Notes under the pieces: generated by a model | The model's input: the letters and a program-made list of their open reading frames with translations, nothing else | What the model was told of the DNA's origin: nothing | The model's database searches: none | Position numbers and translations under genes: made by a program | Shown here: piece by piece, positions 51,067 through 53,098 of the stretch | Layout of the letters: every line of letters starts with the position of its first letter | How positions within the stretch are numbered: position 1 is the first letter of the stretch | Sequence record: PZ296772.1 | Source of the DNA: a phage | Direction: 5' to 3' (one strand) | DNA length: 64,000 nucleotides

Positions 51067-51582
51067 ATGAATATTTGTTTAGGCAGTACAATTCCTAAGG
51101 GTTACGTAATTGATGTCACTACTTATGAAAATGATGGTGACAACTATAAAACCAAAACATTGTTTGAAGTGGAAGAGCATGAGCTCCAACAGTTTAAATA
51201 TCTTTTGAAGAAATTTAAGAGTCGTCATTCCAGCACTAAAGCTGAACGTTACTGTGGTAATACACCATTCAGTGATTGCTCGCTTTTAATCTACGAATAC
51301 TTGGTTGAAGGACTGTTCTCAGACCAGCTTTATCCAGAATTCATTAAAAAGGTCTTTGATATTGAAGTCGACCTTGGTAATAAATCTGAAGAAGACGAAT
51401 CGCGTGTATTCGACCTGTTCCGTGAGAATGGATATTTAGTATCAGAAGGTCTCGTTGGTATTCTTGGTCATGCTTCTGAATATTATGATTATGATTTCTT
51501 GCGTGTAGTTGAATGTGTTGAATTTGCTTATATTGAAGAAGAAATCGTTTTGCCAACTGTTAAAATGATTGATTTGCTTTAA
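51067..51582 (+). CDS. hypothetical protein
   Basis: 171 aa ORF in compact early operon. Confidence 0.55.
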   Translation: MNICLGSTIPKGYVIDVTTYENDGDNYKTKTLFEVEEHELQQFKYLLKKFKSRHSSTKAERYCGNTPFSDCSLLIYEYLVEGLFSDQLYPEFIKKVFDIEVDLGNKSEEDESRVFDLFRENGYLVSEGLVGILGHASEYYDYDFLRVVECVEFAYIEEEIVLPTVKMIDLL

Positions 51583-51661
51583 GAATTATGTGTTATTATT
51601 AATTCATACCATCTATTACCAAAGGTGCTCTAAAGTGCCTTTCATAATAGAAAGTTATTTA

Positions 51662-51735
51662 GGCCCTGTAGCTCAACGGTTAGCAGCAGTCCCCTCATAA
51701 GGGAAAGGTTACCAGTTCGAATCTGGTCTGGGTCA
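51662..51735 (+). tRNA. tRNA, anticodon CAT (Met or Ile2 type)
   Basis: Hand-folded cloverleaf: acceptor GGCCCTG/CTGGGTC (one mismatch), T arm ACCAG-TTCGAAT-CTGGT, anticodon loop CTCATAA; 3 bp D stem. Confidence 0.6.
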
Positions 51736-51741
51736 TATATT

Positions 51742-51818
<77 letters not shown>

Positions 51819-51836: not shown

Positions 51837-52181
51837 ATGAAAGGCAATGTTTATCTGGTAGTTCATGATTTAACGTTTTATTTTAACGAATATGATACAG
51901 TTATTTCTCATCGATTGATTAATTCGCTGTATCAGCATGCCGATTACATCTATGTTCAAAATGAATTTGGACATTGGAAGTTCATTAAAAACCGTTCTGG
52001 GTTAACTAGTTTTGAATACTTTGACCGTAAAGACCTTTTAAACGAAATCCCGTTGCAACATCGGTTCCAGAAACGTGAATCATTATATTATTGCCGTCAT
52101 ATACCAAACGCCGAATGTGTTAATGAAGCGATTAATCTATGGCGTCGGCGTCGAGAGCAAATTGATGATATGCCAAAATAA
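51837..52181 (+). CDS. hypothetical protein
   Basis: ORF 51789..52181 trimmed to first ATG after the tRNA (track ORF overlapped the tRNA). Confidence 0.5.
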   Translation: MKGNVYLVVHDLTFYFNEYDTVISHRLINSLYQHADYIYVQNEFGHWKFIKNRSGLTSFEYFDRKDLLNEIPLQHRFQKRESLYYCRHIPNAECVNEAINLWRRRREQIDDMPK

Positions 52182-52351
52182 GAAGCCGGGTCGCTACCGG
52201 CAAGTCGTCGGACTGATGTTCCCTGAATAAGACCCGACTTTAAGGCGTACATGAGTTGACATCTTAAAGTCCCTTATCTCACAGCAGAAACGGCGCACAG
52301 AATTATCGATTCGAGGAAATATCTTTGCCGTAAGCCGAGTAGCGTTTTTGA

Positions 52352-52443
52352 CGGAACGTTCGGATATGGTCGAGATATGGCCTTTTAAAAATATTGAGTA
52401 GCGTCAACTACTTAATAACCGGGTTCGAATCCCGGCGTTTCGT
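52352..52443 (+). ncRNA. tRNA-like element in structured non-coding region (candidate small stable RNA or degenerate tRNA)
   Basis: Canonical T arm CCGGG-TTCGAAT-CCCGG plus acceptor pairing CGGAACG/CGTTTCG; no canonical anticodon arm; in a 330 nt ORF-free stretch ending in a terminator. Confidence 0.3.
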
Positions 52444-52495
52444 ACAAACACTTGCCTTAGCAGGTGGAACCCCGACAAGGTTGCCGCAAGGCTTA

Positions 52496-52522
52496 GCCCC
52501 TTCCGAAAGGTTGGGGCTTTTT
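52496..52522 (+). terminator. intrinsic terminator
   Basis: GCCCC-TTCCGAAAGGTT-GGGGC then TTTTT. Confidence 0.65.
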
Positions 52523-52567
52523 GGTATAATAATAAATAGATAAGTTAATTAACTTAGGAAAAGCAAC

Positions 52568-53032
52568 ATGAAATCATACGCTGAATTTTTGACTGAACAA
52601 TCTAGTTCAGATGTAAAAGCCGCTGCGATTGCAGCAATTCAAGCAGGTAAATATTCTTACAAAGACGCCTCCGATGAAGAACGTTTCCGTTTTATTAGAG
52701 ATTTTAAAGCCGAAGGTTTTACTAATGCTAATACTGTTAGCCGAGTTTTTAAAAGCCTAGCTGCATCAGGTGAATTGTTCCAGAAAGCTACAGGTAAAGC
52801 ACCTGCGCCAAAAGCGGACCCTAAAACAGCTCAAGAAAAAAATATCGCCAAAGGAATTATTTCTAAGTATGAAGCAATTCTTAAAGAGCTTTTAGTAATC
52901 AAAACAGAAGGCCAGAAACTGGCACGAGCACATAGTTTCAAAGATAATCCTCACGCTCATAGCCTTGAGTATGTTGAAGATATCCAAAAACTTATTAAAG
53001 ACCGTATCTGGTCTGCTAAACAAATTAAATAA
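52568..53032 (+). CDS. internal protein-like with capsid targeting sequence
   Basis: 154 aa; N-terminus MKSYAEFLTE; flanked by near-identical terminator hairpins. Confidence 0.65.
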   Translation: MKSYAEFLTEQSSSDVKAAAIAAIQAGKYSYKDASDEERFRFIRDFKAEGFTNANTVSRVFKSLAASGELFQKATGKAPAPKADPKTAQEKNIAKGIISKYEAILKELLVIKTEGQKLARAHSFKDNPHAHSLEYVEDIQKLIKDRIWSAKQIK

Positions 53033-53038
53033 TAGAAT

Positions 53039-53065
53039 GCCCCTTCCTTACGGTTGGGGCTTTTT
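53039..53065 (+). terminator. intrinsic terminator (near-duplicate of 52496-52522)
   Basis: GCCCC-TTCCTTACGGTT-GGGGC then TTTTTGGTAT. Confidence 0.65.
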
Positions 53066-53098
53066 GGTATCTAGGGCATAAAAATATTTCATAAAGAT

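Follow-up and report, generated by a model that had tools for sequence, protein, structure and literature searches.

The stretch from position 52184 to 52522 of the window, by which we mean the whole 64,000 nucleotides of phage DNA that were analysed (PZ296772.1), is very probably the 3' end of a T4-type tRNA operon, in which orthologues of RNA D and RNA C are followed by a conserved trailer and by the operon terminator. This assignment follows from homology to the T4 genes, from the modular layout and from folds supported by covariation. Both RNAs are already known, real and well conserved, and judged by all features accessible here rnaC and rnaD of the window phage are members of the T4 rnaC and rnaD families. 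The source phage is T4-like, and the stretch consists of three adjacent plus-strand modules spanning 339 bases. An earlier note on this DNA had treated the region as one RNA and had put a T4 RNA C- or D-like small stable RNA first among its three suggestions. The latter was correct, as the region is the rnaD and rnaC orthologue, and the single RNA has to be replaced by three separable modules. The operon contains the following features:

51573..51599, plus strand: probable T4-type middle promoter of the tRNA/stable-RNA operon, with the MotA-box-like TTTGCTTTA, a 12-nt spacer and TATTAT
51662-51735, plus strand: tRNA-Met(CAT), found by ARAGORN and as Rfam tRNA
51742-51818, plus strand: tRNA-Arg(TCT), found by ARAGORN and as Rfam tRNA
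51837..52181, plus strand: 114-aa ORF, phrog_3355 (no assigned function), between tRNA-Arg and rnaD
52178..52299, plus strand: predicted rnaD (T4 species 2 RNA) orthologue, from alignment to NC_000866 71053-71171, RNAalifold and the minimum free energy (MFE) fold
52300..52305, plus strand: spacer GAAUUA between rnaD and rnaC, the 5' leader of rnaC
52306..52444, plus strand: predicted rnaC (T4 species 1 RNA) orthologue, from alignment to NC_000866 70908-71046 and the consensus fold
52445..52495, plus strand: conserved trailer with hairpins and a motif, from fold and conservation
52496..52522, plus strand: predicted intrinsic terminator of the operon, from sequence and fold

The identity of the locus was determined by comparison with other phage genomes. 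The 411 bases around the region are 100% identical to those of the Escherichia phages PTK, AlbertHofmann and vB-Eco-KMB38, and this query matched a total of 803 phage records, which come almost exclusively from T4-like phages of Enterobacterales. The homologous stretch of T4 (NC_000866) is annotated as tRNA-Arg, followed by rnaD (71053-71171) and then rnaC (70908-71046). At the homologous place in phage ATK47 an ncRNA is annotated as 'rnaC, small stable RNA, species 1 RNA'. T4 rnaC (species 1 RNA, 'band C', 139-140 nt) holds the same position at the end of the operon before the terminator, with rnaD upstream and the same trailer downstream, and nothing material differs for rnaC in the window phage. 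In contrast, T4 rnaD directly follows tRNA-Arg, whereas an ORF separates the two here, and the operon of the window phage, unlike that of T4, holds only two tRNAs. The order of modules is tRNA-Met, tRNA-Arg, ORF, rnaD, rnaC, trailer and terminator, and the stop codon of the 114-aa ORF (52179-52181) overlaps the first bases of rnaD. The two tRNAs scored 52.4 and 71.1 bits with the Rfam tRNA model. The probable promoter was read against the T4 middle-promoter consensus; a sigma-70 scan gave no match on the plus strand. The T4 tRNA cluster is transcribed from a middle promoter just upstream (PMC2330249).

The general features of the region reported before were reproduced. There is no plus-strand ORF of at least 60 codons in 52184-52522, and the longest overlapping ones lie at 52075-52230 (51 aa) and 52394-52543 (49 aa). 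The region is structured well above chance level, with a z-score of -4.89 for the fold of the whole region. A canonical cloverleaf is indeed missing: ARAGORN finds only the upstream tRNA-Met and tRNA-Arg, and the Rfam check that had been proposed, when run, returned no Rfam 15 family at gathering score anywhere in the region.

The rnaD orthologue begins with a hairpin at 52185-52201, whose loop GUCGCUA is invariant. This is the hairpin GCCGG-GTCGCTA-CCGGC of the earlier note, and its closing pair covaries between A-U and G-C among 17 distinct homologues. A long irregular hairpin follows, closed by GUCGUCG (52204-10) and CGGCGCAC (52291-98), which form a 7-bp helix at the 3' end of the RNA. Its tip is hypervariable (about 52225-52275) and occurs in three unrelated sequence types among the relatives. 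A second hairpin that had been pointed out, AAGTCG..CGACTT, is tied to this variant of the rnaD tip, and neither the MFE nor the consensus fold contains it; the tip sequence with CGACTT occurs in some of the phages only. RNAalifold on the 17 distinct homologues gave 24 pairs, 6 of them with compensatory change. In a full-length alignment with T4 the first ~55 and the last ~25 nt are nearly identical and the centre is divergent. T4 rnaD (species 2 RNA, 119 nt) has the same or nearly the same 5' hairpin, closing helix and 3' end, whereas the tip of its long hairpin (~50 nt) is of a different sequence type. By BLAST rnaD is restricted to Tequatrovirus, Mosigvirus and JS98-type phages. A diverged copy was read by eye in an unannotated gap of the tRNA array of Pectobacterium phage PM2, with UAGG/CCUA instead of CCGG/CCGG in the 5' hairpin and one pair of the closing helix flipped from G-C to C-G. 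In a 2025 study (PMC12685909) a T4-like phage was adapted to a semi-permissive host, and every evolved line carried the same SNP in rnaD. This recurrent SNP is the only phenotypic hint for these RNAs.

The rnaC orthologue (52306-52444) is identical to T4 NC_000866 70908-71046 in 138 of 139 bases. It was present in 751 phage records, 417 of them at no less than 99% identity and 267 at 95-99%. For a comparative analysis homologues were gathered from annotated phage records and viral contigs, which resulted in a final set of 23 distinct sequences from about eleven genera. The set covers Tequatrovirus, Mosigvirus, Karamvirus, Kanagawavirus, Moonvirus, Tegunavirus, Gelderlandvirus, Marfavirus and Mosugukvirus, and also holds phages EcS1, KLB31 and, as the 23rd sequence, PM2. 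The consensus structure of these 23 sequences is a tRNA-like four-way junction composed of an acceptor stem, a long arm, an 8-nt A-rich linker, a 10-bp arm, one unpaired A and a T arm:

52307..52313, plus strand: 5' strand of the acceptor stem, CGAUUCG, pairing with 52436-52442
52314..52383, plus strand: long arm, with a D-stem-like base AGG (52314-16) / CCU (52381-83), stacked helices and the tip loop UUGACG (52348-52353)
52384..52391, plus strand: A-rich single-stranded linker UUUAAAAA, near-invariant in its alignment columns
52392..52417, plus strand: 10-bp arm UAUUGAGUAG / CUACUUAAUA with the 6-nt loop CGUCAA at 52402-52407
52419..52435, plus strand: T arm CCGGG-UUCGAAU-CCCGG, with 2 of 5 pairs covarying and 99% paired
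52436..52447, plus strand: 3' strand of the acceptor stem, CGUUUCG (52436-42), and the tail U-A-C-A-A

Several lines of evidence point to this fold. The MFE structure of the single sequence (-50.2 kcal/mol, z = -4.56, reached by 0 of 200 shuffles) joins the 5' and 3' ends, and so does an unconstrained RNAalifold prediction on 18 sequences, in which 21 of 46 pairs show compensatory change. In the same 18 sequences 94.3% of the cells are paired, compared to 37-47% when the partners are slid by 1-3 columns, and the 21 pairs changed on both sides compare with 8.0 ± 1.7 in shuffles. For the five core helices in all 23 sequences the values are 92.8% versus 33-47% paired and 15 of 31 pairs versus 6.3 ± 1.4 with compensatory change. 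Thus, the covariation check against homologous loci that had been suggested for the region, run on rnaC, gave compensatory changes above the shuffle level. Among the single elements, the 10-bp stem shows compensatory changes in 7 of its 10 pairs, and helices 2-4 of the long arm are 95-100% paired, with the base AGG/CCU replaced by UGG/CCA in PM2. Among the relatives the long arm has a body of at least two types that are unrelated in sequence (T4-type and Melville/KLB31/PWKp16-type), and a tip loop of the UUGACG type is always kept. The A-run of the linker and the following U, which opens the next helix, are nearly invariant.

The acceptor stem of the window phage contains tandem U.U mismatches, and the two mismatches are present in most members. 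They are replaced by U-A/C-G in Tegunavirus and by U-A/U-A in PM2, where in addition the first pair changes from C-G to A-U. Pair 4:139 is A-U in 10 of the 23 sequences, G-C in 12 and G-U in one. These observations bear directly on the tRNA-like 3' module proposed in the earlier note, which measures 93 nt with its internal acceptor partner. Its T arm CCGGG-TTCGAAT-CCCGG is present at 52419-52435, where two pairs covary, and the 7-nt acceptor-like strand is also real (CGTTTCG, 52436-52442, directly after the T arm). The pairing of this strand with CGGAACG did not stand. CGGAACG lies at 52352-58, 78 nt upstream of the acceptor strand instead of the 90 nt given before; it shows no compensatory change, and one pair is broken in 9 of 18 sequences. 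The actual partner is CGAUUCG at the 5' end of rnaC (52307-13), which covaries with 52436-52442. The module was therefore built on a wrong pairing that lacks covariation. The T-loop sequence itself is not universal and reads UGCAUGC in Kanagawavirus.

The two remaining loops of rnaC are complementary to each other. Loop CGUCAA (52402-07) can pair with the long-arm loop UUGACG (52348-53) in a kissing loop or pseudoknot. Every cell of this loop-loop helix is paired in 22 sequences and none is broken, and two independent compensatory changes were found, UUGAUG/CAUCAA in Tegunavirus and UUGGCG/CGCCAA in Marfavirus. In PM2, the 23rd sequence, the helix is shortened to 4 bp. The covariation fits a predicted contact within one molecule as well as one between two molecules, i.e. 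a dimer. A further contact is possible between GG at 52379-80, just before the CCU strand, and the T loop, which would resemble the G18-psi55 and G19-C56 contacts of the tRNA elbow. Kanagawavirus alone departs from GG, with CG at this place, and its T loop has G in place of U as the second base; one pair is thereby converted from G.U to C-G, and the neighbouring G-C is kept. As this is one evolutionary event, we regard the contact as a lead. Finally, a tail U-N-C-A is conserved. It reads UACA in the window phage as in T4 and UUCA in Tegunavirus; in Marfavirus and PM2 it is UCCA, so that a CCA end is encoded. The T4 annotation places the end of rnaC at the position corresponding to 52444, i.e. 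at U-A without CCA. Consequently, aminoacylation of rnaC is unlikely.

The distribution of rnaC was followed with a covariance model built from 22 of the collected sequences. The model picked up the distant rnaC of PM2 with 88.9 bits. It found no rnaC in the tRNA regions of Serratia/Winklervirus CHI14, Erwinia/Roskildevirus Cronus and Citrobacter CkP1, in that of the T5-like Providencia phage PR1, or at JS98-type loci. Three degenerate-pattern scans of viral contigs returned only contigs of the Tevenvirinae type and chance matches, and a pattern scan of 185,579 bacterial and archaeal genomes returned a single chance match which the covariance model did not confirm. Outside Tequatrovirus and Mosigvirus rnaC is located within tRNA arrays. 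This was seen for Karamvirus, Gelderlandvirus, Kanagawavirus, Tegunavirus and Mosugukvirus, and the gap to the neighbouring tRNA is 5-11 nt where measured, like the gaps between tRNAs. JS98-type relatives of T4 lack rnaC and other relatives lack rnaD; since some T4 relatives do without one or the other, neither RNA is essential. T4 mutants that have lost the entire tRNA region are viable on laboratory hosts. Rfam has no family for either RNA, and genome records usually give no annotation for them or list hypothetical proteins in their place.

The 78 bases after rnaC (52445-52522) are common to T4 and end in a hairpin and a T run. They comprise the hairpin CACUUGC-CUUA-GCAGGUG (52449-66), the motif CCCGACAAGG and a small hairpin GCC-GCAA-GGC in the trailer, for which a fold with z = -2.71 was predicted. 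The trailer is 95-100% identical across 586 phage records. In JS98-type phages without rnaC it stands directly after rnaD, and a diverged copy is present in Erwinia phage Cronus. From these positions and from the separate losses of the RNAs we conclude that rnaD, rnaC and the trailer are separable units. The trailer may additionally be a third, unannotated small RNA. The terminator, GCCCC UUCCGAAAGGUU GGGGC UUUUU, is predicted to be intrinsic (Rho-independent) from its G+C-rich hairpin and U run. The earlier note had already placed an intrinsic terminator at the end of the region, and the hairpin GCCCC..GGGGC with T5 at 52496-52522 folds as predicted. A simple terminator scanner missed it because the loop exceeds 8 nt, and in some GenBank records a terminator is annotated here.

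The likeness of rnaC to a canonical tRNA (RF00005) is considerable. Its terminal 7-bp acceptor stem continues without a gap into a 5-bp T stem, whose loop has 7 nt, the helices meet in a four-way junction with the possible GG/T-loop contact, a U73-like base is followed by N-C-A, and the location and spacing in tRNA arrays are those of a tRNA. In contrast to a tRNA, rnaC has no D arm and no anticodon arm of the size found in tRNAs. In place of the D loop there is a 70-nt arm, and the anticodon arm is replaced by a 10-bp stem whose 6-nt loop is paired; the linker measures 8 nt and the 'variable region' 1 nt. ARAGORN detected no tRNA and no tmRNA in 52178-52522. At E ≤ 10 Rfam gave no tRNA match in the region except tRNA-Sec, with 17 bits versus a gathering score of 47, and this permissive scan contained only chance-level matches (tRNA-Sec with 17 bits, isrK with 16 bits).

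Two other known RNA families were compared. Like a tmRNA, rnaC carries at its termini an acceptor stem stacked on a T arm, the shape of an RNase P-type substrate. Unlike tmRNA it lacks G3.U70, the pseudoknot ring and a tag reading frame, is 139 nt long and, as annotated, ends without CCA. At pair 3:70 the T4 group has A-U and the other sequences have G-C (together 22 of 23 sequences), with G-U in PM2 alone. As there is no G3.U70, no tag and no tmRNA match by ARAGORN or Rfam, the tmRNA-like reading was rejected. YrlA, a Y RNA-like RNA bound by Rsr/Ro, is a non-coding RNA with a tRNA-shaped module, and some copies are phage-encoded. In YrlA, however, it is the Ro-binding stem that is made by the termini, and the tRNA-like part lies inside the molecule. 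The Rfam YrlA model (RF02553) did not match rnaC, and its sole weak match (17.8 bits, gathering score 69) fell on the true tRNAs at 51707-51767. A further candidate, a tRNA-Lys mimic acting as a decoy for PrrC, arose from the linker sequence CUUUUAA together with an ARAGORN call of tRNA-Lys(ttt) in phage G4500. This 94-nt call is false and has the same fold as the internal acceptor pairing. It is due to one A fewer in the linker, and no such call was obtained for the window, T4 or others. Since the U-run of the linker is not conserved across genera and the call needs a 1-nt deletion, the candidate was rejected. Apparently, rnaC works like a tRNA only as a putative processing substrate.

In T4 one transcript runs through the tRNA cluster and ends after the species I RNA gene, and both the tRNAs and the species I and II RNAs are derived from it (PMC2330249). 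RNAC and RNAD are stable species of ~140 and ~120 nt, seen for RNAC by northern blot, and both are classed as late (PMC9697503). Most likely, rnaC and rnaD are produced by excision from the tRNA transcript by host tRNA-processing enzymes. According to the T4 literature of the 1970s-80s, RNase P makes the 5' end of species 1 RNA. In rnaC the covarying acceptor and T stems (12 bp) and a single-stranded 5' leader form an RNase P substrate shape, from which cleavage is predicted. rnaC would be cut out like a tRNA, as its two termini pair in a 7-bp acceptor stem that stacks on the 5-bp T arm. This minihelix is what RNase P needs; a cut at its base would give the 5' end of rnaC, and the 3' side would be trimmed back to the U-N-C-A tail. 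rnaD would be the upstream remainder, trimmed to its terminal helix.

What the mature rnaC does can only be proposed tentatively. With the acceptor/T minihelix, the GG/T-loop contact and the 10-bp limb in the place of the anticodon limb, rnaC might be a structural mimic of tRNA, which is the weakest step of the proposal. The tip of the 10-bp limb would be masked by the 6-bp kissing interaction. A masked tip would make decoding impossible, which leads to the proposal that rnaC acts by binding a protein that reads the tRNA shape. Such binding would titrate or recruit the protein. That rnaC is a dedicated L-shaped tRNA mimic, serving as decoy or adaptor, with an arm inserted in the D loop which locks the 'anticodon' loop, is a speculative reading that we consider unlikely. 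A 2010 review, the 2022 omics paper (PMC9697503) and the 2025 study (PMC12685909) all state that the function of rnaC and rnaD is unknown, and searches of the accessible literature to 2025 returned only statements of this kind.

Other explanations start from the same structures. They may act only in cis, as RNase P entry site, exonuclease blocks and terminator, and set the ends and half-lives of the tRNAs and of the mRNA of the upstream ORF, with the excised RNAs as by-products. rnaD begins at the stop codon of this ORF and finishes in a terminal helix, rnaC has the shape of a minimal RNase P substrate, the terminator closes the trailer, and the modules can be missing independently of one another. 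In the MFE fold of the whole precursor, GAAACG from the 3' end of rnaD pairs with the acceptor strand of rnaC. However, a processing handle needs the acceptor/T minihelix alone. A conserved and covarying 70-nt arm and the loop-loop pairing are left unexplained, as is the accumulation as stable species late in infection (PMC9697503), and a role in cis only is accordingly an unlikely account of the region. It is improbable that rnaD, rnaC or the trailer are base-pairing small RNAs directed at host or phage mRNAs. The conserved rnaC loops are complementary to each other and not free, and the 2010 review reports no functionally characterised trans-acting regulatory RNA in T4. The trailer nevertheless has the architecture of a terminator-ended sRNA, its copy in Erwinia phage Cronus lies after a promoter-like sequence, and for rnaD the invariant loops and the SNP shared by all evolved T4-like phage lines (PMC12685909) would fit such an activity.

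The earlier note had also considered a degenerate tRNA, and rnaC could be a decaying tRNA pseudogene without function of its own that is kept merely through its location in the tRNA operon. We regard this as very improbable. It is true that rnaC takes the position of a tRNA gene and keeps a T arm and an acceptor stem, that ARAGORN can be tipped into the 94-nt tRNA-Lys call in one variant, and that a weak full-length alignment to tRNA-Sec exists (17 bits, E = 4). Nevertheless, rnaC is strongly constrained, with a covarying non-cloverleaf fold of its own, and near-invariant over 684 records. It is the non-tRNA parts, namely the long arm, the kissing loops and the A-rich linker, that are most conserved and covary, whereas the alternative cloverleaf-like pairing shows no covariation. 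Furthermore, the 'anticodon' UUU is not conserved, as other genera have UCUU, UUUG, UUAC or UAUCC in the linker. That the region encodes small proteins is hardly conceivable, although the 49-aa ORF at 52394-52543 matches phrog_28391 with E = 1.8e-31 and most GenBank records that match the DNA of the region carry a 'hypothetical protein' there. The ORF starts with TTG inside a covarying helix and crosses rnaC, the trailer and the terminator, the substitutions observed are paired and preserve helices, and the curated T4 annotation shows RNAs and no CDSs here. Most simply, phrog_28391 is a family of the same spurious ORF calls.

The result is thus a rediscovery of T4 rnaD and rnaC, which were sequenced in the 1970s and count among the longest-known non-coding RNAs of phages that lack an assigned function. 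A useful by-product of the analysis is the comparative fold of rnaC. It offers mutants of the terminal acceptor stem, the kissing loops, the possible elbow contact and the N-C-A tail, and the covariance model would clean up the annotation in several hundred phage genomes. If the reading of rnaC as a tRNA mimic were true, candidates for what it occupies or titrates would be a host defence nuclease directed at tRNAs, an enzyme of tRNA processing or repair, or a tRNA site of the ribosome, and the 50-year-old 'species 1 RNA' would be given a function.

The three elements rnaD, rnaC and trailer can be lost separately. In the JS98-type contigs L032 and L034-L037 the trailer, the conserved stretch that lies 3' of rnaC in the window, directly abuts rnaD (..GGCGCACC GAA CACTTGCC..) with rnaC precisely missing, and the covariance model built from 22 rnaC sequences detected no rnaC in these loci. 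The occurrence of rnaC without adjoining rnaD was observed in Karamvirus, Kanagawavirus, Tegunavirus, Gelderlandvirus and Marfavirus. Three unrelated sequence types, namely the T4-type, the window-type and the L010-type (L010 being a locus from another phage), were found to occupy one and the same site, the tip of the long hairpin of rnaD (window 52225-52275 and its homologues), and each of them is predicted to form a hairpin. This pattern looks like cassette replacement.

Further elements and gaps were located in tRNA arrays of other phages, each given in the coordinates of its own locus:

L045 ~1955-2075, Pectobacterium phage PM2: diverged rnaD-like element within a tRNA-array gap that lacks annotation
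L042 2829-2999, Serratia phage CHI14: unannotated tRNA-array gap
L044 3073-3408, Citrobacter phage CkP1: unannotated tRNA-array gap
L043 1005-1400 and 1476-1768, Erwinia phage Cronus: unannotated tRNA-array gaps
L043 1085-1160, Erwinia phage Cronus: divergent trailer copy

The element of PM2, which was missed by BLAST, exhibits compensatory changes in the 5' hairpin and in one pair of the closing helix. The gaps of CHI14, CkP1 and Cronus measure 170-400 nt and contain stable folds and T-arm-like hairpins. The covariance model revealed no rnaC in them; other tRNA-like or stable RNAs may be encoded there.

In most GenBank records rnaC and rnaD are annotated as 'hypothetical protein' or not at all, and in one further record a 'tRNA-OTHER' was placed at the rnaC site. 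The record of Escherichia phage G4500 (L041 573-666) contains a 94-nt 'tRNA-Lys(ttt)' within rnaC, and ARAGORN gives the same call. This assignment was rejected, as it hinges on the loss of 1 nt from the A-rich linker and makes use of the non-conserved internal acceptor pairing. Within the window the following features accompany the RNA locus:

51573-51599: MotA-box-like TTTGCTTTA, 12-nt spacer and TATTAT, directly upstream of tRNA-Met
52394-52543: 49-aa ORF with a TTG start, spanning the 3' half of rnaC together with trailer and terminator
53038-53072: near-copy of the tRNA-operon terminator, GCCCCTTCCTTACGGTTGGGGCTTTTTGG

The 49-aa ORF matches phrog_28391 of PHROG with an E value of 1.8e-31, and this family probably consists of spurious ORF calls on the rnaC locus. 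The near-copy closes the next gene (ORF 52568-53032, phrog_2280) and, as read from the sequence, closely resembles the operon terminator GCCCCTTCCGAAAGGTTGGGGCTTTTTGG at 52496-52524; in many phages two-piece BLAST matches link the two. Judged against the T4 middle-promoter consensus, 51573-51599 is probably a T4-type middle promoter of the tRNA operon.

The GAAACG near the 3' end of rnaD (52288-52293) is perfectly complementary to CGUUUC of the rnaC acceptor 3' strand (52436-52441), and in the minimum free energy structure predicted for the whole precursor this pairing replaces the rnaC acceptor stem. It could be due to chance or represent an alternative fold of the precursor stage.

The trailer copy of Cronus is composed of ACACUUGCC-UAG-CAGGUGGAA.., CCCGACAAGG and GCC-GAAA-GGC, followed by a GC hairpin. 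It is just preceded by GTGTTATTATTAAT, which is also found before tRNA-Met in the window and, from its sequence, is read as a promoter -10 region. Because the Cronus copy lies directly 3' of this promoter-like element, the trailer may constitute an independent small RNA.
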